Shown: positions 2,032 to 42,196 of the stretch, in pieces
Layout: every line of letters begins with the position of its first letter
Position numbering within the stretch: position 1 is the first letter of the stretch
Sequence record: NC_022968.1
Length of the DNA stretch: 64,000 nucleotides
Origin: Escherichia phage 4MG
Direction: 5' to 3' (one strand)
The notes under the pieces: model-generated
Seen by the model: only the letters and a program-made list of their open reading frames with translations
Told to the model about the DNA's origin: nothing
The model's database searches: none
Made by a program: the position numbers and the translations under genes

Positions 2032-2107
2032 TGGTGGGGCATGAAGGATTCGAACCTTCGACCTTCGGCTTAAGAGGCCGCTACTCTAACCGCTGAGTTA
2101 ATACCCC
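2032..2107 (-). tRNA. tRNA-Lys (anticodon CUU)
   Basis: Hand-folded 76-nt cloverleaf: acceptor GGGGUAU/AUGCCCC, D-stem ACUC/GAGU, anticodon loop CUCUUAA, T-arm GAAGG-UUCGAAU-CCUUC, encoded CCA. Confidence 0.8.
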
Positions 2108-2801: not shown

Positions 2802-2878
2802 TGGTAGTTCTGGCAGGGATTGAACCTGCGACCTCTTCCTTATGAGGGAAGCGCTCTAACCAACTAAGCTACAGAACC
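2802..2878 (-). tRNA. tRNA-Met (anticodon CAU; elongator Met or lysidine-type Ile2 cannot be distinguished)
   Basis: Hand-folded 77-nt cloverleaf: acceptor GGUUCUG/CAGAACU (G1-U72 wobble), D-stem GCUU/GAGC, anticodon stem CUUCC/GGAAG with loop CUCAUAA, T-arm GCAGG-UUCAAUC-CCUGC, encoded CCA. Confidence 0.8.
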
Positions 2879-4105: not shown

Positions 4106-4144
4106 AGCCTACCTATCAGAAAAGCCCCCGAAGGGGCTTGTGGA

Positions 4145-5827
4145 TTACAGTTGAGCGGCTGCTCGTTCACGAATCGTTGTCAGGTCTTCATCGACAATCA
4201 GTTTGCCGTTGTAGAACACACGACGCAGTTCGTTATCGTCAGACTGTACATCTTCAAGCTGACAATTGTCAATCAGTTCTAGCTGACCAAACATATTGCG
4301 AACAACCTTCAGGAAACCTTTTGCAGACTTCTTACCGAGGTCAGTCTTAGGTTCTTTGACAACCATGATCTGCTGACCATCAATAACCGCACCAGTTGCC
4401 TTCACAGCCATACCCAGTGAATCGCGGGTTGTGTACTGGGTAGTAAAGGAACCAACACCGTACACGATATTGCTGGATGCAAAGCCTTTATCTTTCAGAC
4501 GTTCAAAGATGTCTTTTGCACGAGCAACAGTGATAGAGTCACCGTAGATCAGGCCAACATGACTATCCAGAACTTTGTAACCCTTGGAGTTAACTTCACC
4601 ACCAAAGATTTCCCACAGACACTGGATTGCACCTTTGACTTCATGGTCTTGCAGATCGGAAGGCTCAAGATCAAGGTAATCCGTATCTTCATCGAATTCG
4701 ATGTTGTAATACTTACCTTTGACTGATACAACTTCACCTTTCTCGCTTTCCCATGCTGCGTCTTTGGCTTCAGACAGCGTTTCGAAATCACCAATATAAC
4801 GATACCCCGCAATGATATGTTCCGGAATGCCTGAATCAGGACGGAACACAACACGACCGTCACGAGCCATGATTTCTTCTTTCAGAATCAGTGCTGCACG
4901 GGTAATAATCGCCCAGAAGTCATAGCTGTCTGCTACGTAGGAAACAAAACCTTTCGGGAAAATTTCCGTGATGTAGCGTTTCAGGAATTCAACTTCAGCC
5001 AGGAAACGCAGTTCATCCAGGGACAAATCAGGATTTTCAGTTTTCAGGCGACCGACGATAAAGCCAATGTTAGTTGTTGCAACACTGTGTTCTGATGCAG
5101 GAATAGAACCAGCAACGAACTTACCTTTCATGTTGTAATAACGGTTCGCATACAGAATCGCAGGAATGGTATCTGTACCCATTGAGTTGATCAGTTGACC
5201 AAACTCACTCTGTGCCGCGTCGTGAGTACCAGATTCACCGCGATAAGCGAAGCAGTGGTTCTGGAACGGAACATGCAGGTTGTTATCACAAGTTTCGGCA
5301 GCGTATGCTTCAGACAGTTTGCGATACTGCCAGAAGGTAGTTGCAGTTGTGATGGTTTTCCATGTCTCTGCGGAGATCACGCTTTCCAGGAAGTTCGGCA
5401 ACCAGTAAAAATCAGGGTGCGTGTTCTGAATGGTGAACAGCGGAACCTGTACCGGGGACAGAGTGCCTTCAGGAATCGAACGGATTTCCAGTGGCAGGTA
5501 ACCAAGGTCATGCAGCTTTTCAAAGCCCCAGGTTTCAACCATGTCCGGGCCGATGCTCAGTTCACAAATTTCTTTGTACTGTGCGATAGCCGCTTTCTTT
5601 TTCATTTTGAAAAAGTTTTCGTTGAACAGGTCGATCAGGAACCATTTGATGAAACCTTGCAAGCCAGCCATCATCACACGCTGATCGTTATCAGCGAAGT
5701 GAATGAAGTGCTTTGCATTGCGTGGTGTCATGTTGTCCTGAACAATTTCAGAACGTCGGTCATACATGGAGATGTGTGAAGGTTTGTAAAAGTCAGCGAA
5801 TACGAGTGGGCTTTCTTTATGCAGCAT
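4145..5827 (-). CDS. nicotinamide phosphoribosyltransferase (NAMPT) family protein; candidate nicotinamide ADP-ribose transferase of an NAD+ reconstitution pathway
   Basis: 560-aa track ORF with AAGGAGA SD; NAMPT motif set FADFYKPSH, PLEIRSIPEGT, FTIQNTHPDFYWLPNF, AYRGESG, ASEHSVATT, VADSYDFW, FRPDSGIP. Confidence 0.88.
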   Translation of the reverse strand: MLHKESPLVFADFYKPSHISMYDRRSEIVQDNMTPRNAKHFIHFADNDQRVMMAGLQGFIKWFLIDLFNENFFKMKKKAAIAQYKEICELSIGPDMVETWGFEKLHDLGYLPLEIRSIPEGTLSPVQVPLFTIQNTHPDFYWLPNFLESVISAETWKTITTATTFWQYRKLSEAYAAETCDNNLHVPFQNHCFAYRGESGTHDAAQSEFGQLINSMGTDTIPAILYANRYYNMKGKFVAGSIPASEHSVATTNIGFIVGRLKTENPDLSLDELRFLAEVEFLKRYITEIFPKGFVSYVADSYDFWAIITRAALILKEEIMARDGRVVFRPDSGIPEHIIAGYRYIGDFETLSEAKDAAWESEKGEVVSVKGKYYNIEFDEDTDYLDLEPSDLQDHEVKGAIQCLWEIFGGEVNSKGYKVLDSHVGLIYGDSITVARAKDIFERLKDKGFASSNIVYGVGSFTTQYTTRDSLGMAVKATGAVIDGQQIMVVKEPKTDLGKKSAKGFLKVVRNMFGQLELIDNCQLEDVQSDDNELRRVFYNGKLIVDEDLTTIRERAAAQL

Positions 5828-5880
5828 GTTTTGTTTCTCCTTTGTGTGTTTTGATGGGGTGATTCTACACCCCGTTTCGT

Positions 5881-6414
5881 TTAGATGTCAAGTGAAAAAT
5901 CTAAAGATTTAGATTCTTCTGTTACAACCGTTGTTTCTTTAACCAGACGACAGCCTTTCACCTTGATTTCTTTGGCTGGTGACCACTTAGTCGCACGGAT
6001 ATAGAATGTGTTTGCACGAATAACCATGAACCGGGCTACATCTTCAGGTGGTTCCTCGTTAATAAAAATCGCAACACTTTCGTATGCAGGCCACTTCATA
6101 GGGTTTTCATCGGTAACATCGGAATGTATACCATTACCGTTGTTAGTGCGACCCGGTGTAGGCCAGATAGTACAAGGTCGATAGCAGGCGTGGTCATCAG
6201 GAACCTGAATAACGTGATTTTCTAACCACGAGCAAATTTTTTCCAGGTCAAAATCATAATGGTCTTCTTTCAGGTCTTCAATATCTGTACGATATTCAGC
6301 CCCAACACCACACTCACCGATTTGCCCGGTAATATGAGCGCACATGTCACGCTCAAAGTTTCCTGCGTATGAGTCAGTATCGACAACAAAAATAAAACGA
6401 GTTGATTCAGTCAT
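5881..6414 (-). CDS. hypothetical protein (177 aa) embedded between the NAMPT-like and Prs-like genes
   Basis: Track ORF; stop/start abuts 6414-7214; no motif recognised (no Nudix box, no P-loop). Confidence 0.5.
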   Translation of the reverse strand: MTESTRFIFVVDTDSYAGNFERDMCAHITGQIGECGVGAEYRTDIEDLKEDHYDFDLEKICSWLENHVIQVPDDHACYRPCTIWPTPGRTNNGNGIHSDVTDENPMKWPAYESVAIFINEEPPEDVARFMVIRANTFYIRATKWSPAKEIKVKGCRLVKETTVVTEESKSLDFSLDI

Positions 6415-7214
6415 TAAAAATTCTCCGTCCAGTCATGGTATGCGTAGATTTCATCAACCCCGCCATCGAGGATGATTTGTTTCCCGAATGAGAAAATGCC
6501 GTGCGTAACGTAAAGGATAACACGTTTTGCACCATTCTCTTTCAGGGCTTTAGCCAGGGCGATGAAGGTACGACCACCATCACAGATATCATCGACGACA
6601 ACGCATTCGCGTCCTTCAACATCACCAAAGATTGCTGTCCCCGTAATTTCGTTTGTTTTCAGGTCACGAACCTTACCAGCTTCAACCAGAGGGAGTCGCA
6701 TACGGTCGGCAACCTTCTGTGCCTTCTTGCGAGCGCCTGCGTCTGGTGCAACAATGGTCACATCTTTCCCGGCAAGTTGATCATGGAATTCTGCAACAAG
6801 AATCTCTTGTCCACGAATCTGAACATTGTCCAGCAGTGCAGCAGAAACATCACTGTGTGGGTCATCAACAATCACTTTGTCGAAGCCAAGCGAGTTGACG
6901 AGGTTTGCAAAAACCTTGATAGATAGTGACTGTCCAGGTTGCATCACGCGATCCTGACGGGCATACGGGATGTATGGCAGGTGCAGGGTAAACTCAGCAT
7001 GGTTATGCAGCCCTTCAAGACGGGAACATGCATCCACCAACATAGCTAATGCCATGACATCGGTGGAGTTTTTGATTTTTGCAGTGATATCGACGAAACC
7101 AATACCGCCTTTTGGGGCATGTTTCAGATCAATCTCAACCTGTTCCTCACCACCCTTGAAGGTGAAGTGGTTAACAGGCACTTCCAGTTTGTTCAAGCGT
7201 AATTCAATACTCAT
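6414..7214 (-). CDS. ribose-phosphate pyrophosphokinase (Prs) family protein; candidate ADP-ribose pyrophosphokinase
   Basis: 266-aa track ORF, AGGAGA SD; Prs motifs PYIPYARQDR and VVDDICDGGRTF, GAKRV; shorter than cellular Prs. Confidence 0.88.
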   Translation of the reverse strand: MSIELRLNKLEVPVNHFTFKGGEEQVEIDLKHAPKGGIGFVDITAKIKNSTDVMALAMLVDACSRLEGLHNHAEFTLHLPYIPYARQDRVMQPGQSLSIKVFANLVNSLGFDKVIVDDPHSDVSAALLDNVQIRGQEILVAEFHDQLAGKDVTIVAPDAGARKKAQKVADRMRLPLVEAGKVRDLKTNEITGTAIFGDVEGRECVVVDDICDGGRTFIALAKALKENGAKRVILYVTHGIFSFGKQIILDGGVDEIYAYHDWTENF

Positions 7215-7215
7215 T

Positions 7216-7533
7216 TTATTTCTCCTCTATCCAATCGTGAATTTCGTAAACCGTTTTGTTGTGGCCCATATTGGTGCGTGTTGTATCCTTTGTCAACCAT
7301 TTTATTTTCTCAAGGTTACCCACACACCGGGCAACAGTCGCCCTCGATAATCCTGTGGCATCAGCGATACTATCAAGTGACTCATGGTAAGTTTTCCGGA
7401 GAGACTTGAAGTAATGATACTGATGACGCATGTAGAGGTACACAATCTTGTCGTTGGACGAGGCGCAGGTCACCGACAGCAACTTCAGTTCGAAGTTACC
7501 GTAGATGTGCTTACCTGACGCGATGTACCCCAT
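7216..7533 (-). CDS. helix-turn-helix DNA-binding protein, putative transcriptional regulator (105 aa)
   Basis: Track ORF, GGAGGAGAG SD; HTH-like segment SIADATGLSRATVARCVGNL; first gene of leftward block next to divergent control region. Confidence 0.5.
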   Translation of the reverse strand: MGYIASGKHIYGNFELKLLSVTCASSNDKIVYLYMRHQYHYFKSLRKTYHESLDSIADATGLSRATVARCVGNLEKIKWLTKDTTRTNMGHNKTVYEIHDWIEEK

Positions 7534-7757
7534 GTCTCTCCTCCATAGCCTATACTCAAATTGACACTAAGCCTAGTCTCAAATTGATAACAGAAATAAA
7601 TACTATATAAAATAAATAAAACAATACTCTTTTAAAAAACAATAAAACATAAGATCTAAAAACAAGATCTTTTAGTATGATCTATATATTCTACTATCAA
7701 AGAGTCGCTGACTCGATGGAACGCAGTATGAATGAACAAAAATGTGCTGTCAAGTGG

Positions 7758-7785
7758 TTGACTTGAGATTTTGTTCATGTAGAAT
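7758..7785 (+). promoter_or_regulatory. sigma70-like promoter TTGACT-N16-TAGAAT for rightward block
   Basis: Hexamers read directly; 26 nt upstream of first + gene; coordinates +/-2. Confidence 0.5.
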
Positions 7786-7811
7786 GCTCGTATTGTTAAA
7801 GGAGATTGTTA

Positions 7812-8135
7812 ATGTTGTCAAGTAAACAAACAAAAGATATTGGTGATATGGTATGTGGAAAACCTCGTCGTAAACCTGAACAGACTGACGAGGAGAAGTC
7901 AAGACTTATGTTAATTCGTGATGTTTTTCATGAAACAATGAAAGAACAAAATGTGTGTGTTGTGTTACCAGATGGTAAGTCCGAGCAGGAAGTGTTCGGA
8001 GATTACCTCACGTCATTGCGTGGTCGATTAAGACGTAGAAATGTGACTGTGGTGTGGTATAAAGACTTGACAGTGGAACACATCGAGAGTAATAATTGTG
8101 TGGTGGATCTCAGTGAGATTCGTATAACGCTCTAG
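7812..8135 (+). CDS. hypothetical protein (107 aa)
   Basis: Track ORF (ATG at 7812 after AAAGGAG SD); no motif. Confidence 0.5.
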   Translation: MLSSKQTKDIGDMVCGKPRRKPEQTDEEKSRLMLIRDVFHETMKEQNVCVVLPDGKSEQEVFGDYLTSLRGRLRRRNVTVVWYKDLTVEHIESNNCVVDLSEIRITL

Positions 8136-8803: not shown

Positions 8804-9039
8804 GCAGACTTTCAAAGCTTCACAGACGAAAGAACATGCTGAAAGAAAAGCAGAAAAATATCACCGCAACTTTCCAAGTGTGCCGTGAAGCTATGAAGGC
8901 AAATCTGATAACGCCTTCACAGAGGCAGATTATCCGTGATATACTCCGGCCTGTGCTGCACGACCTGGAGGGCGAGGTTCGTGATGTTTTATGCCACATT
9001 CAAGAAGAACTTGAAAAATTAAATCAGGAGAATACATGA
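8800..9039 (+). CDS. hypothetical protein (79 aa)
   Basis: Track ORF; coupled start. Confidence 0.45.
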   Translation: MSRLSKLHRRKNMLKEKQKNITATFQVCREAMKANLITPSQRQIIRDILRPVLHDLEGEVRDVLCHIQEELEKLNQENT

Positions 9040-9629
9040 TCGACCACGTTACATCAGACACGCATTGGTGGCACACCAATATTCTGGGTTTTCCCTCGTG
9101 TGATAAATTCCGGAAAAACCTGTACGGTCCAAAGGAAGTCCGTGAAAGTCTGTATGCCATGAATGCTGGCATGATTGAAATCTGGAATAAGCACGTCAAA
9201 CCAGATGATGTCGTAGCACACCTCGGTGATTTCGTGATTGCTTACGGACGCTACATGGAGCCTCGCGTTCGTGACATCTTGGAAAAGATCAACGGAAAGA
9301 TCATTCTGGTTGGTGGAAACCATGACAACCGAGATACGAAACGTATCTTCCGTGAGTTTGGTCACGAAGTTGTTGATTATAAAGAGATTAACTTCAGCAC
9401 TGGAAAAGAGAAGGTGCATGTGTGTATGTCTCACTATCCGTTTGCATCGTGGAATAAAGCTCACCACGGGTCAGTTATGCTGCACGGTCATAGCCACGGC
9501 TCCTATACAGCCCCTGGTGGACGTATTCTGGATGTGGGTTGGGATGTACATGGTCGTCCTCTGACGATGCGTGAAGCCGTCCTGATGTGCCTTGAAAAAC
9601 CAATTTACACTGCTGATCACGGAGAATAA
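9036..9629 (+). CDS. calcineurin-like metallophosphoesterase (candidate RNA/DNA-end phosphatase)
   Basis: Track ORF 197 aa; motifs HLGDFV, GGNHDNRD, HGHSHG typical of metallophosphatases. Confidence 0.7.
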   Translation: MIDHVTSDTHWWHTNILGFPSCDKFRKNLYGPKEVRESLYAMNAGMIEIWNKHVKPDDVVAHLGDFVIAYGRYMEPRVRDILEKINGKIILVGGNHDNRDTKRIFREFGHEVVDYKEINFSTGKEKVHVCMSHYPFASWNKAHHGSVMLHGHSHGSYTAPGGRILDVGWDVHGRPLTMREAVLMCLEKPIYTADHGE

Positions 9630-9630
9630 T

Positions 9631-9987
9631 ATGCACAACAAAGTACGTAATTTCTTACCTAAGAAAACATCTAAGTCTTTTTATGCTACGATACACATTG
9701 CTGGGGATCTGGAATCAGCAAGACCATTGCTCCGTCAATGGACTATGCGTGGTGCTTGTGTACAACTAGTCGGGTGTGATTACATCTACACTGGCGGCTC
9801 TGAACGGGGTATGACAGTTCGCATCATGCAGTATCCTCGTTTTGAACGACCGGAGCACGAGATCCTTGAAATGGCGGTTGAACTTGCTAACTTTTTAGCT
9901 CAGGAACTCTGCCAGATCAGTTTCAGCATTGAAACTCCTTACAATACAACGTATTACCAAGCAGAAGGTTACGAAAAGCGATCATGA
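9631..9987 (+). CDS. hypothetical protein (118 aa)
   Basis: ATG after GGAG SD; frame of track ORF. Confidence 0.4.
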   Translation: MHNKVRNFLPKKTSKSFYATIHIAGDLESARPLLRQWTMRGACVQLVGCDYIYTGGSERGMTVRIMQYPRFERPEHEILEMAVELANFLAQELCQISFSIETPYNTTYYQAEGYEKRS

Positions 9988-10187
9988 AAATTCACAACAT
10001 AACCAAGGACAGGATTCATTTCATAATGGATTCAGGGGCTTACGGTTCAATTTCAAAGGTGGATGCCATGAAGTTTCTGTATGCTTCAAATATTCCTCAG
10101 GCAAAGCTTGACTCCCGTTCAGGAGAGTGTATTATTGACTCTATTACGAATACACAAGAACTGTGGGAGATATATCATGAAATTTAA
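9984..10187 (+). CDS. hypothetical protein (67 aa)
   Basis: Track ORF; coupled start. Confidence 0.4.
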   Translation: MKIHNITKDRIHFIMDSGAYGSISKVDAMKFLYASNIPQAKLDSRSGECIIDSITNTQELWEIYHEI

Positions 10188-11097
10188 CGTAGATGATCTG
10201 GTTGCTAAAAAGCTGGTAACCAAAAAGACTTACACCGAAGGCCCGTTCGCGGGTCTGTCTGTACTGAAATATAAGAACAATGTGTTCTGGGATAACCTGT
10301 GGCACACAGATGCGCGTCTGCTTGAGTGCCGTGGCATGGTTGTTGATGCAGAGGACAACGTTGTTATCTGGCCTTTCACGAAGATTTTCAATCGCTTCGA
10401 GAACAACACTGATGTCCCACAGGACAAGTTGGTGTGCGTACCTCGTAAAGTCAATGGCTTTATGGCAGCAATGAGTGTTTACAATGGTGAAGTAATTGTG
10501 TCTACCACAGGAACACTTGATTCTGAGTTTGCACAAATGGCAAAAGATAAGATCACTGGTTCCATGCCTGAAGGGATGCTTGACTATTTCGTGAAGAATG
10601 CTGGACCTTGCACACTTATCTTTGAAATATGTGATGAGAGTGATCCCCACATTGTCGCAGAAGAAGCGGGTGCTTATCTGATTGGTTGCCGGGTCCACTT
10701 AAGTGGTGGTATGCTTCCAGAGTGGGACCTTGATAGAGTTGCAAATCGTTATGGTTGGAAACGTGCTGACTGGGACAACATGATCTTCAGCGATGTTGTT
10801 AAGGCTTCCAAGTCAGTTAATCATGAAGGTTTTGTTGTTCGTGATGTTGACACCAATGAGCTACTGCTGAAAATTAAGTCTCCACATTACCTGGCGAAGA
10901 AGTTCCTGATGCGTGGTAGCCAGAACAAGTGGGACCTGATTTGGGACAACCCGAAAGAAGCCAAAAAACGTATCGACGAAGAGTTCTACGAACTTCTTGA
11001 CTGGCTGCGCTGGGCTTACGAAAAAGATGAGTGGGCGGCTAAGGACTCTCAGTATCGTCGTATGATTATTGAAAAATATTTTGAGGATCGCAAATGA
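10177..11097 (+). CDS. RNA ligase-like nucleotidyltransferase (Rnl2-like)
   Basis: 306 aa; covalent nucleotidyltransferase motifs KVNG (motif I), NHEGFVVRD (motif IV), LKIKSPHY (motif V). Confidence 0.55.
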   Translation: MKFNVDDLVAKKLVTKKTYTEGPFAGLSVLKYKNNVFWDNLWHTDARLLECRGMVVDAEDNVVIWPFTKIFNRFENNTDVPQDKLVCVPRKVNGFMAAMSVYNGEVIVSTTGTLDSEFAQMAKDKITGSMPEGMLDYFVKNAGPCTLIFEICDESDPHIVAEEAGAYLIGCRVHLSGGMLPEWDLDRVANRYGWKRADWDNMIFSDVVKASKSVNHEGFVVRDVDTNELLLKIKSPHYLAKKFLMRGSQNKWDLIWDNPKEAKKRIDEEFYELLDWLRWAYEKDEWAAKDSQYRRMIIEKYFEDRK

Positions 11098-11330
11098 CAC
11101 TCATGTCAATCAAGAACAAACTTGACCGGGCTGTTTCCATAATTACCAGACTTATCATTGGGTTATCTGTGTTTATCTTCTTATTTGCACTGATAATCTT
11201 TGTGAATTGGGTTATCGAAACTCTGGGTGGTAAAGTAATATTCGGTGGAATTCTGCTCATCATTGCGGTGATTGGCTGTTATGGTGTTGGATGTTCCATC
11301 TACCCACACAAAGAAAAGGGTGAAAAATGA
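11094..11330 (+). CDS. small membrane protein (78 aa)
   Basis: Track ORF; two hydrophobic helices. Confidence 0.45.
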   Translation: MTLMSIKNKLDRAVSIITRLIIGLSVFIFLFALIIFVNWVIETLGGKVIFGGILLIIAVIGCYGVGCSIYPHKEKGEK

Positions 11331-11671
11331 TCATCTGGCTTGATGACTTGAGAGACCCAAAAGACTACGGGTATCCTGATGCCTTGTGGTTCAAGACCTC
11401 TCAGAAGTTTATGGATTTTCTTGATAATCGGTCAAAGTTCTATCGTTATGTCACAGAGTGGCATTTTGATAATGACCTAGGTGAAGATTCAGAAAAGGAG
11501 GGCTATGACTGCCTACTGGCCTTGGAAGAGAAGCTTGTGTATGGGAAACTTCCTGTGCATGATGCTAAACTCTATGTCCATACGTCTAACCCTTCTGCGG
11601 CACAAAAGTTCATGCTTGCAAAAGAGAGCTTCTTGAAGTATCGTATCACGATCTTAAGAAACAATTACTGA
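11327..11671 (+). CDS. hypothetical protein (114 aa)
   Basis: Track ORF; coupled start. Confidence 0.45.
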   Translation: MIIWLDDLRDPKDYGYPDALWFKTSQKFMDFLDNRSKFYRYVTEWHFDNDLGEDSEKEGYDCLLALEEKLVYGKLPVHDAKLYVHTSNPSAAQKFMLAKESFLKYRITILRNNY

Positions 11672-11680
11672 GGAGAAGAG

Positions 11681-12088
11681 ATGGAAAAGACTCTGATCAT
11701 CCTGCGTGGTGTGTCTGGTGCTGGTAAGTCTACAGTAGCAGATATGCTGGCAGAGGATTTGTGGCCTGTCTATGAAGCAGATAAATTCCACTACACAGAA
11801 GATGGCGTGTACGACTGGAAACCTGAAAACATGCAGGCTGCACACGCATGGTGTCAGTCAGAGGTCAAAGATATGATGGGGTGGAATATCAGCAGGATCA
11901 TCGTATCTAACACCTCTACCAGTGAAAAAGAACTGAAGCCGTATCTTGATCTCGCAGCGGAGAACGGGTATCGTGTCATCAGCTTGGTGGTAGAAAACCG
12001 TCATGGCAATGACTCCATTCACAGCGTTCCGCAGGAAACCCGCGATGCTCAAGAGCGTCGTCTGCGTAACTCATTGAAATTACAGTAA
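11681..12088 (+). CDS. P-loop kinase, polynucleotide 5'-kinase-like
   Basis: 135 aa; Walker A GVSGAGKST at N-terminus; sits between RNA ligase-like and Sir2-like genes. Confidence 0.55.
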   Translation: MEKTLIILRGVSGAGKSTVADMLAEDLWPVYEADKFHYTEDGVYDWKPENMQAAHAWCQSEVKDMMGWNISRIIVSNTSTSEKELKPYLDLAAENGYRVISLVVENRHGNDSIHSVPQETRDAQERRLRNSLKLQ

Positions 12089-17908: not shown

Positions 17909-18415
17909 ATGAGAGTAACTGATCAGCATGTTTTCTTCTTCACTTATCGTGATATGTTCAGCAACCACTTTCGACAGATAATTCCTATTCGTTGTGGTGG
18001 CTATGAGTTCTTCACGGTGGAGCACTTTATGATGTTCCAAAAAGCAATGCTCTTTGATGACAAAGAGATTGCTGCACGTATTGCCACAGTTGATAATCCA
18101 AACGAGGCAAAAGCGCTGGGTCGTAAAGTCAGGGACTTTGACAACAGTGTTTGGGAAGAAAACAGAATGGACATTGTAACAAACGGTCTTGTTCTGAAAA
18201 TGAAGGCTAACCGCTCTATTCTGGAGTCTGCACTGACTCACAGAGATGCTGGGCGGCGATTTGTAGAGGCATCCCCGTATGATGCAATCTGGGGTGTAAA
18301 ACTGAATGAATATGATCCACGCATTGATGATCCTGCTAACTGGCAAGGTCTTAATCTTCTCGGTGAGTGCTGGGAAAGAGCAATTGATGTTGTGATCGCA
18401 GCTTCGTGGAGGTGA
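17909..18415 (+). CDS. NADAR-domain (YbiA-like) protein
   Basis: 168 aa; motifs MFSNHF, TVEHFMMFQKA, DAIWGV, GLNLLGECWERA matching the YbiA/NADAR pattern. Confidence 0.75.
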   Translation: MRVTDQHVFFFTYRDMFSNHFRQIIPIRCGGYEFFTVEHFMMFQKAMLFDDKEIAARIATVDNPNEAKALGRKVRDFDNSVWEENRMDIVTNGLVLKMKANRSILESALTHRDAGRRFVEASPYDAIWGVKLNEYDPRIDDPANWQGLNLLGECWERAIDVVIAASWR

Positions 18416-40776: not shown

Positions 40777-41114
40777 AAGACGTTCGTGGTGAAACCCTGA
40801 ATGTTGGTGATGAGGTTTATATCTACTGGGGGTATAACCAATTGCGCCCAGCCGTGGTAAAGCAGATCACTAAAAACAAGGCCAAAGTGTTTTGTGACGG
40901 GTCACTCTCCAAATGGAAGTCAGGTGAGTGCATGATCAAGGCAGAAGAACCAACAGGCTACTACCCTGACGAGGTGATCATGCTTCTTGAAGAGATTCGT
41001 CGTATTCGGGATGAGGCTCCGATGAATAAAGAGGGTCTTCCAACAAAACAACTGTGCCAGGGGCTTCTGAATTTTTGGGATATGAAGCGCCCAATGAAAC
41101 TGGTTACCTCTTAA
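40773..41114 (+). CDS. hypothetical protein (113 aa)
   Basis: Track ORF. Confidence 0.45.
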   Translation: MKDVRGETLNVGDEVYIYWGYNQLRPAVVKQITKNKAKVFCDGSLSKWKSGECMIKAEEPTGYYPDEVIMLLEEIRRIRDEAPMNKEGLPTKQLCQGLLNFWDMKRPMKLVTS

Positions 41115-41122
41115 GGAGAGAT

Positions 41123-42196
41123 ATGAAAACTTTTGATATGATGCGATGCTACTCAGGTAGCCTCGCGTATGGGACTAATCTCCCAACATCGGATGTTGAT
41201 ATCCGTGGTCTGTTCTGTGCGGAACCTAAGTTCATCCGTACTCCATTCTTCAATATCAAAGAGCAGACGCTCGCTGATGAAGAGGATGGTAAGATCTACG
41301 AACTGACAAACTTCATGAAGTTGTTTGTGGAGATGAACCCCAACATCATCGAACTGATGTTTGTTGATGAAAAAGATATCATTTCCAGTTCAGACGCTTA
41401 CGCATACCTGCGTACAATGGCACCTGAGCTTATGTCAAGTAAGGTTGCATTTAGCTTCTCTGGTTATGCTATGGCACAGCTTAAGCGTATCCGTGGTCAT
41501 GATAAGTGGATCACCAATCCGCAACCGGAGGAAAAGCCAACGCAAAAGGACTTCTTCCGTTTAGTCCACAACTACAGTGAGCACCCTTTCCTTGCTGGTG
41601 TAATTAAGCACGAACGCTTCATGGAGGCCATGACAAATCTGAACGATATGTGCGTCCTCGTTCCTTATGGCAACGACATCTATGGTGTGATGGAGAACTT
41701 CAGTAGCTCAGGTATGTTCAACGCAGATGGTTCTATTCGTCATGTTGACTACCAGCAACTGTCTGATACAGACAAGCGCCGGAAACCTGTGTTCATTGTA
41801 AAGTATCTGGCAGAAGAGCACAAACAGGCAAAGGAGAAGCACCGTAACTACTGGGCCTGGAAGCAGAACCGTAACGAAGTGCGTCATCAGCTTGAAGTGA
41901 ACTTTGGGTACGACACCAAACACGCCATGCATCTTGTACGTCTGATGCGCATGGCTGAAGAGATCCTGACTGATGGAAAGGTTCTGGTGAAGCGTCCTGA
42001 CGCTCAAGAACTCTTAGATATCCGTGGTGGCAAGTGGACTCTTGACGAGCTTCTTAAATGGGCTGATGAAAAAGATCATTACATTCGCGAAGTTCTGTAC
42101 AAAAAGACAGACCTGCCGAAGTACACCGATCTTGAGTTAGCTTCTCGTGTTCTCATGACAGCGCAGGATATCTGCTGGGCGAGTATGGATGTTTGA
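41123..42196 (+). CDS. polymerase-beta superfamily nucleotidyltransferase of unknown specificity
   Basis: About 357 aa; GSLAYGTNLPTSDVDIRGL fits the G[SG]-x(9-13)-D-h-[DE] nucleotidyltransferase signature; helical C-terminal domain. Confidence 0.6.
   Translation: MKTFDMMRCYSGSLAYGTNLPTSDVDIRGLFCAEPKFIRTPFFNIKEQTLADEEDGKIYELTNFMKLFVEMNPNIIELMFVDEKDIISSSDAYAYLRTMAPELMSSKVAFSFSGYAMAQLKRIRGHDKWITNPQPEEKPTQKDFFRLVHNYSEHPFLAGVIKHERFMEAMTNLNDMCVLVPYGNDIYGVMENFSSSGMFNADGSIRHVDYQQLSDTDKRRKPVFIVKYLAEEHKQAKEKHRNYWAWKQNRNEVRHQLEVNFGYDTKHAMHLVRLMRMAEEILTDGKVLVKRPDAQELLDIRGGKWTLDELLKWADEKDHYIREVLYKKTDLPKYTDLELASRVLMTAQDICWASMDV

Follow-up and report, generated by a model that had tools for sequence, protein, structure and literature searches.

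A predicted NARP1-type NAD+ reconstitution operon with an uncharacterised middle gene in Escherichia phage 4MG

A gene pair encoding a Prs-like and a NAMPT-like protein was analysed computationally, together with the open reading frame (ORF) between them, in a 64,000-nt stretch of Escherichia phage 4MG (NC_022968.1), referred to here as the window. The window covered only the part of the genome syntenic to 22.9–86.9 kb of Cronobacter phage GAP31 and followed the GAP31 coordinates from 86.9 to 22.9 kb. The phage was Vequintavirinae/Seunavirus-like, with DNA about 88% identical to that of Enterobacter phage EC152 and of GAP31. Since this identity was only about 88%, the phage was regarded as distinct from its best matches. 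Three ORFs were found on the minus strand at 4145-5827 (560 aa), 5881-6414 (177 aa), and 6414-7214 (266 aa). The ORF coordinates and every motif quoted in an earlier note on this DNA were confirmed in the translations.

The ORFs formed part of a co-directional block with tight or overlapping junctions. The gene order was a winged helix-turn-helix (wHTH) gene, a putative Adps gene, ORF177, and a putative Namat gene. The wHTH gene (7216..7533, minus strand) was the first of the block, and its stop codon lay 1 nt before the Adps start. The Adps homologue lay one gene upstream of Namat on the same strand (criterion: within 10 genes).

The gene at 6414..7214 (minus strand) encoded a 266-aa protein, predicted to be Adps (ADP-ribose pyrophosphokinase; Prs-like) from its Prs-family domains, its key residues, and profile and tree comparisons. 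The protein matched Pfam Pribosyltran_N, Pribosyltran, and Pribosyl_synth, as well as PHROG 619 (E 2e-96). With 266 aa against 315 aa in E. coli Prs, it was shorter by 49 aa, as the earlier note had stated in rounded form (about 50 aa). The identity was 85–86% to the GAP31 protein, 41% to Bas63 Adps, 38% to ICP1 Adps, 32% to E. coli Prs, and 30% to SPbetaL1 Adps. Because the identity to the Adps references was 30–41% and that to E. coli Prs was 32%, raw identity did not decide between Adps and Prs.

According to the ICP1 structure paper, Adps keeps the acceptor surface of phosphoribosyl pyrophosphate (PRPP) synthetase (PRPS) and a catalytic lysine, has a remodelled PP-loop, and has lost the C-terminal alpha11-alpha12 module of PRPS. 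The loss of this module is described as a defining signature (PMC13586617). In the window protein, the acceptor residues were present as F19, R86, H120, D158, D208, and D209 (F18, R87, H121, D161, D212, and D213 in ICP1), and the catalytic beta-hairpin lysine was present as K181 (ICP1 K185, SPbetaL1 K162). The catalytic lysine and the PP-loop C211-D-G-G-R-T-F217 were identical to those of the validated Bas63 Adps; the loop reads CDGAASF in ICP1 and IDTGGTL in E. coli Prs. Only 30 residues followed the THG motif, compared with 40–57 in other Adps proteins and 65–67 in cellular Prs (two measured; 67 in E. coli Prs), and the alpha11-alpha12 module was missing.

Profile and tree comparisons gave a consistent picture. 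A hidden Markov model (HMM) of Adps, trained without the lineage of the window phage, scored the window protein at 292 bits, while the Prs model scored it at 101 bits. For E. coli Prs, the scores were 130 and 677 bits, respectively. A neighbour-joining tree that included 16 Adps from phages and 11 Prs from gammaproteobacteria split the two families with a bootstrap of 100/100, and the window protein fell in the phage Adps group. Among the NCBIfam models, the protein stayed below all Prs equivalog cutoffs (for NF002320, it scored 144 bits where 297 are required and E. coli Prs reached 533) and passed only the broad TIGR01251 subfamily model; both results were the same as for Bas63 Adps. A model dedicated to Adps or Namat is absent from NCBIfam, and this comparison could only reveal failure of the Prs equivalogs. 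Assignment as a canonical Prs (ribose-phosphate pyrophosphokinase) was rejected, as the protein lacked both the equivalog score and the full-length C-terminus. The conversion of ADP-ribose (ADPR) and ATP to ADPR pyrophosphate (ADPR-PP) and AMP has been demonstrated only for the SPbetaL1 and ICP1 enzymes.

The gene at 4145..5827 (minus strand) encoded a 560-aa protein, predicted to be Namat (nicotinamide ADP-ribose transferase; NAMPT-like) from its NAPRTase domain and clamp motif. The protein matched Pfam NAPRTase (E 1.6e-27) and PHROG 448, "nicotinamide phosphoribosyl transferase" (E 6e-194). Its identity was 88–90% to GAP31 Namat and 31% to KVP40 NadV. The protein was aligned with the Bas63 and SPbetaL1 Namats, the ICP1 homologue, and KVP40 Nampt, with sequences taken from GenBank records. 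According to the structural paper on Namat, selectivity depends on a clamp on adenine, the SCH motif GSXphiXphiXphiTRD, in which positions 3 and 7 hold aromatics that contact adenine. The motif of the window protein was G459-S-F461-T-T-Q-Y465-T-T-R-D469, with both adenine-stacking aromatics (F461 and Y465) and the same length as in validated Namats. The corresponding sequences were GSYTYQYMTRD in Bas63, GSFTYQYNTRD in SPbetaL1, GSYTYQYVTCD in the ICP1 homologue, and GGGLLQQLDRD in the PRPP-preferring KVP40 Nampt. The published rule for the second element, SCL, requires Arg, Lys, or Tyr as the third residue after TPR and, in the case of Lys or Tyr, a fourth residue that stacks on adenine. The window loop reads TPR-N-A-K39-H40, which agrees with the rule in sequence, and H40 may stack on adenine; the Bas63 loop reads TPR-S-D-K42-W43. 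KVP40 also has Lys at this position, so the loop alone is non-discriminating.

The catalytic and NAD-contact residues were all kept (D12, Y14, F193, R196, D219, H247 within SEHS, R329, and D331), corresponding to the NAMPT-type core of SPbetaL1 (D13', Y15', F189, R192, D215, the catalytic His, R306, and D308). The closest solved structures were 9w5x and 9w5w (E 2.8e-124, 418 bits). The printed sequence of these entries bears the SPbetaL1 Namat motif GIGSFTYQYNTRD, and they therefore correspond to SPbetaL1 Namat. Cellular Nampt structures scored 165–184 bits, with E-values of 4.5e-53 for the Xanthomonas enzyme and about 1e-46 for human/mammalian NAMPT. Compared with SPbetaL1 Namat, the window protein was expanded at aa 43-47 (5 aa), 254-277 (21 aa), and 342-384 (about 43 aa). 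The single extra insertion of about 70 aa described earlier was thus three separate insertions. The validated Bas63 Namat (593 aa) was likewise expanded at all three sites. A preference for ADPR-PP over PRPP with direct NAD+ synthesis has been demonstrated only for SPbetaL1 Namat.

Two observations concerned these families in other phages. A Namat homologue of ICP1 (MW794154.1, L001 4988-6307) adjoins the structurally characterised Adps and is annotated merely as "hypothetical protein". As annotated (439 aa), it is without the N-terminal 55 or so residues that hold the D13/Y15 and SCL region in other Namats, which may reflect a mis-called start or a real truncation. PHROG 12872 (547 positions) matched both the window Adps (profile 3-222) and the C-terminal half of the window Namat (profile 255-539). 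Table S1 of the NARP1 paper includes an entry from Shigella phage Ag3, FJ373894_00125, that appears to join an Adps N-terminus to a Namat C-terminus; it could be either a natural fusion or a deletion or annotation artefact.

The NARP1 pathway has been described in detail by Osterman et al. (2024, bioRxiv 10.1101/2024.02.11.579819). The Prs-like/NAMPT-like operon of Bas63 overcomes SIR2-HerA, as shown by deletion from Bas63, and works in a host without nadR and pncC. The SPbetaL1 enzymes form ADPR-PP from ADPR and ATP (Adps) and NAD+ from ADPR-PP and nicotinamide (Namat). NARP1 was found in 859 phage genomes in the same work. Its tables include the Prs-like proteins of GAP31 and Salmonella phage PVP-SE1 as "Namat within 10 genes: Yes" (Table S1) and their NAMPT-like proteins as "Adps-associated" (Table S2). 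The orthologues of these two phages were 82–90% identical to the window proteins at the amino acid level. The pair belongs to a known, published kind because these orthologues are in the tables of the NARP1 paper, and it is a further case of that system in a lineage already tabulated by its discoverers.

The window pair was compared with the known NARP1 operons. Bas63 (Escherichia phage JohannRWettstein, genes 79-80) and the Bacillus phage SPbetaL1 have the same two families in the same order, with Adps 5' of Namat, and share the Namat clamp motif and catalytic residues with the window. The window proteins were 41–42% identical to those of Bas63 and 30–47% identical to those of SPbetaL1. In both validated operons Adps and Namat are adjacent, whereas the window pair was split by the 177-aa ORF and was preceded by a wHTH gene that has no counterpart before the validated operons. 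GAP31 has an identical four-gene layout, orthologous and syntenic, with identities of 96% (wHTH), 85% (Adps), 90% (ORF177), and 88% (Namat). The orthologous locus of the Seunavirus PVP-SE1 is without ORF177 and has another wHTH gene upstream. Both of these operons were catalogued by the NARP1 discoverers and are known from sequence. The NARP1-AP operon of Vibrio phage Gary (bioRxiv 10.64898/2026.01.28.702374) has a three-gene layout as in the window, Adps-Adpp-Namat, but its middle gene encodes the Macro-domain phosphatase Adpp, while the window middle gene is ORF177.

Taken with the Namat clamp, the Adps-versus-Prs tests, the closest structures, and the published listing of GAP31 and PVP-SE1, these comparisons suggested that the window pair is very probably NARP1 (Adps and Namat) and uses the ADP-ribose route, which the earlier note had favoured over a Prs and Nampt pathway. 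The evidence of this analysis came from homology and signature residues, from the clade in which the proteins were placed, and from the anatomy of the operon; for this phage, enzymatic activities and an anti-defence phenotype are predictions. The mechanism can be outlined from experiments on homologues. Host defence NADases (SIR2-HerA, DSR1/2, type I Thoeris, Kongming, short Argonautes, and others) would split NAD+ into ADP-ribose and nicotinamide. Adps would form ADPR-PP by moving the beta,gamma-pyrophosphate from ATP to the 1'' hydroxyl of ADP-ribose. Namat would then swap the pyrophosphate of ADPR-PP for nicotinamide, giving NAD+ directly. In the window phage, these steps are predicted from sequence.

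Several points weigh against this assignment. The ICP1 Adps contacts F92 (ADPR adenine) and F223 (ATP lid) were not kept, with M91 and A219 in the window protein. Bas63 Adps, validated in vivo, is also without both equivalents (M102 and E230), so these contacts are not family-wide. The clade test was coarse, with a Prs outgroup that was entirely gammaproteobacterial. Position 5 of the Namat motif, usually aromatic, was Thr in the window protein. Function would be transferred here from homologues that are 30–47% identical, and the assayed enzymes all come from outside the Seunavirus/Vequintavirinae. There may also be a side flux through nicotinamide mononucleotide (NMN), given the PRPP-to-NMN activity of SPbetaL1 Namat and the presence of an NMN adenylyltransferase (NMNAT) in relatives.

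The middle gene ORF177 (5881..6414, minus strand, 177 aa) belonged to an uncharacterised phage family, and PHROG 23621 (unknown function) was its sole match. Its fold was confidently predicted and unmatched. A profile search of the PDB gave nothing up to E = 10, a per-member Pfam scan of the family gave scattered noise only, and BFVD gave one unnamed match; no known ADPR- or NAD-binding fold was found. A literature search found no description of the family. The family comprised 1,763 representative clusters at 50% identity, 706 of them at E ≤ 1e-30. Its invariant motifs, DTDxYAGNFER and DDHGCxRP..PTPG, were polar and lay on a confidently folded core. One family member, P0075, carried an N-terminal fusion partner of 200 aa, which had no Pfam match.

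Three known proteins were considered for ORF177 and rejected. It did not correspond to Adpp, the Macro-domain ADPR-1''-phosphate phosphatase of NARP1-AP. It was not RyDEP, the RyR R12-domain glycosidase, as there was no PF02026 match. The aRES inhibitor aRad1 is about 70 aa long in two printed members, with a GFI-x-TGQ loop and a conserved Trp. It was suspected from a conserved loop Gly and an aromatic residue in ORF177; the aRad1a and aRad1b sequences proved unrelated, and the GNFER motif of the ORF177 family was absent from the supplement of the aRad1 paper.

A three-gene pathway was considered as an addition to NARP1. ORF177 would be an accessory that converts or captures another NAD+-derived molecule for Adps and Namat or for other salvage enzymes, comparable to Adpp of NARP1-AP by position and to RyDEP by logic. 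This role is possible but doubtful. Within the operon, it is favoured by the overlap of the ORF177 start with the Adps stop, by the invariant polar motifs DTD, GNFER, and DDH-C-RP on the folded core, and by the recurrence of the Adps-X-Namat layout (X, the ORF177 homologue) in three diverged operons. The identities of X, Adps, and Namat to the window proteins were 90, 85, and 88% in GAP31; 60, 74, and 55% in L098 (L104 was similar); and 49, 48, and 39% in L101. Because the identity of X tracked that of Adps and Namat, long co-inheritance of the three genes was suggested. Salmonella phage 21 was rejected as an independent instance of the layout, as its UNVERIFIED sequence is riddled with frameshifts and copies the same arrangement of four genes. 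Against the accessory role, PVP-SE1 keeps NARP1 without ORF177, a spacer of 67 nt taking its place, and the protein gave no match to a known fold that binds ADPR or NAD.

The neighbourhoods of the family were sampled at 68 loci, representing 58 lineages, and neighbours within about 4 kb were recorded. A gene of NAD+ synthesis or salvage was found in 7 of the 58 lineages, and some NAD/ADPR-related gene in 9. The most striking locus, L149, was a compact NAD/ADP-ribose gene island with the order Nampt, membrane protein, X, NADAR, NDT-like, and Macro, followed at a distance by SIR2. At L128, a Macro gene, PnuC, and NadR were followed directly by X; at L145, X was followed by Adps and an Adpp-like gene, with genes between them. 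X adjoined an NAD kinase gene at L111 and Nampt at L122. In an unbiased Pfam census of 112 immediate neighbours, the top families were those of NAD+ biosynthesis (NAPRTase, Prs-like, and cytidylyltransferase-like), and PTH2 was the only non-NAD family seen twice. The published prevalence among phages is 4.3% for NARP1 and 1.1% for NARP2. The expected share of random loci with such neighbours was well under 1–2%; that this background rate is an estimate from published prevalences, rather than a measured control, counts against the accessory role. In about 49 of the 58 lineages, the surrounding 4 kb or so contained no recognisable NAD gene, and co-location may merely reflect the clustering of unrelated anti-defence genes in accessory islands. 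It is only tentatively proposed that ORF177 is the first noticed member of a large phage family tied functionally to NAD+/ADP-ribose metabolism.

A conventional, NARP2-like salvage pathway was also weighed for the gene pair. The Prs-like protein would make PRPP from ribose-5-phosphate, the NAMPT-like protein would combine PRPP with nicotinamide to give NMN, and a NadR-like NMNAT encoded elsewhere would turn NMN into NAD+. Default database annotations of the two proteins are indeed Prs and Nampt, a NadR-like NMNAT/RNK occurs in relatives (GAP31_248; CTP_transf_like and AAA_28), and SPbetaL1 Namat retained in vitro a PRPP-to-NMN activity that was about half that of human Nampt. However, SPbetaL1 Namat yielded NAD+ only when offered both substrates, and Bas63 beat the defence even in the host without nadR and pncC. 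The window NAMPT-like protein has the clamp motif that is missing from KVP40 Nampt, and the Prs-like protein clusters with Adps, is without the C-terminal and regulatory elements of Prs, and falls below the Prs equivalog cutoffs. Moreover, the NadR-like gene of relatives pairs with PnuC, which fits the separate NARP3 pathway. Conventional salvage is therefore very unlikely here, and NARP1 is retained as the reading of the pair. NARP2 (KVP40 Nampt and Nmnat) and NARP3 (Bas30 PnuC and NadR-like; PMC13464706) serve the same goal, the restoration of NAD+ under immune depletion, and Namat is homologous to the Nampt of NARP2. Assignment of the window locus itself to either was rejected, since it has a NAMPT-like protein with the Namat clamp and no NMNAT, NadR, or PnuC gene lies in the window.

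The search for these three genes covered the 64-kb window, and tblastn with a NadR-like NMNAT gave no match. The sole annotated nucleotidyltransferase of the window (41054-42196) was rejected as a hidden NMNAT, being of the RlaP RNA-repair type. The earlier note was thus right that no NMNAT is visible in the window, but its step from this absence to the ADP-ribose route was unsound when taken alone, as relatives encode a NadR-like NMNAT and PnuC. In the complete genome of GAP31, outside the span syntenic to the window, the NMNAT gene GAP31_248 lies at 134.8 kb and encodes a NadR-like protein (CTP_transf_like and AAA_28) without a helix-turn-helix domain. The transporter gene PnuC (GAP31_243) lies a few genes away, the two genes being located at L012 32818-35886. 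NadR-like and PnuC proteins constitute the published NARP3 pathway (Sci Adv 2026, PMC13464706). An NMNAT is likely to be encoded elsewhere in the genome of the window phage and would be no argument against the ADPR route. Because the GAP31 NadR-like NMNAT pairs with PnuC, matching NARP3, the view in the note that an NMNAT elsewhere in the genome would count against the ADP-ribose route would wrongly reject the idea. GAP31 also encodes a Macro-domain protein (L010 5801-6295) that shares 42% identity (E 6e-36) with the validated Adpp from Vibrio phage Gary and is unlinked to the NARP1 operon. The Seunavirus-like phage group appears to stack several NAD+ counter-defences, with NARP1 joined by a NARP3-type pair (NadR and PnuC), a NADAR protein, and an Adpp-like phosphatase encoded at an unlinked site. 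Since several such systems appear to be stacked, the presence or absence of an NMNAT is unfit to choose between the ADP-ribose and PRPP routes.

The regulatory elements around the operon were located on the minus strand by consensus scans and reading of the sequence. Upstream of the block, an AT-rich region at 7725..7821 contained two sigma-70-like matches, TTGACA-18-AACAAT at 7821-7792 and TTGACA-17-CATACT at 7753-7725, which may act as promoters, judging by their fit to the consensus. This region was the divergence point of the minus- and plus-strand gene blocks, and the GC skew changed sign near 8 kb. A near-consensus promoter-like element (scan match 11/12) with a hairpin was found at 5856..5891, 30–70 nt before the Namat start. 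It consisted of TTGACA at 5891-5886, an 18-nt spacer, and TAGAAT at 5867-5862, and the hairpin (GGGGTG 5873-5868 / CACCCC 5861-5856) overlapped it just 5' of the Namat ribosome-binding site. The element was kept in GAP31 (L002) and also in PVP-SE1 (L097), where the middle ORF is absent and the stem has the compensatory form GGGTGC/GCACCC. The element might serve as an attenuator or processing site, or as a promoter within the operon. The Namat stop was directly followed by a hairpin at 4118..4139 (AAGCCCC-TTCG-GGGGCTT) and then a T-rich tail. In the minimum free energy structure from RNA folding, the stem had 7 bp and the loop was TTCG; the z-score of the whole 51-nt stretch was weak (-1.04), and a simple scan did not list the hairpin. 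An intrinsic terminator is plausible at this site.

The wHTH gene encoded a 105-aa protein matching Pfam HTH_IclR (E 3.5e-5) and PHROG 8102, with a weak, sub-threshold match to wHTH-PRTase_assc (PF24409, E 2.8e-4). It was 96% identical to GAP31_179. At the same position in PVP-SE1, there was a different 186-aa gene with only the wHTH in common (E 1e-7). No wHTH gene adjoined the NARP1 operons of Bas63, ICP1, or SPbetaL1, so the gene was rejected as a conserved NARP1 component and was regarded as a lineage-specific neighbour rather than a defining part. The protein may regulate the operon.

Other features of the window were recorded. A NADAR-domain protein (17909-18412, plus strand; Pfam E 6e-34), 95% identical to GAP31_157, was encoded about 11.5 kb from the NARP1 operon. 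Genes for tRNA-Lys (CTT; 2032-2107, minus strand) and tRNA-Met (CAT; 2802-2878, minus strand) lay a short way downstream of the module, in agreement with the GAP31 annotation. A probable RNA-repair set was found on the plus strand at 9036-12088 and 41054-42196. It comprised a metallophosphoesterase (9036-9629), an ORF without a Pfam match (10081-11097) that was syntenic with the GAP31-annotated "RNA ligase 1", an AAA_33 P-loop kinase (11681-12088), and the separate RlaP-type nucleotidyltransferase (41054-42196).

For the gene pair, the result changes little, as one more Seunavirus-like phage is added to more than 850 NARP1 genomes. The published rules (the Namat clamp, the loss of the Adps C-terminus, and the PP-loop) can be used to re-annotate "Prs/NAMPT" pairs by sequence alone. 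ORF177 is a concrete candidate for a new NAD+-linked phage function, with a confident model, invariant motifs, and natural operons with it (GAP31) and without it (PVP-SE1). If its proposed role is true, ORF177 might be an enzyme or binding protein whose target is an immune signal or one more product derived from NAD+, or it might inhibit an NAD+-consuming enzyme of the host. Phage NAD+ reconstitution could then have in ORF177 a new type of accessory factor, following Adpp and RyDEP.

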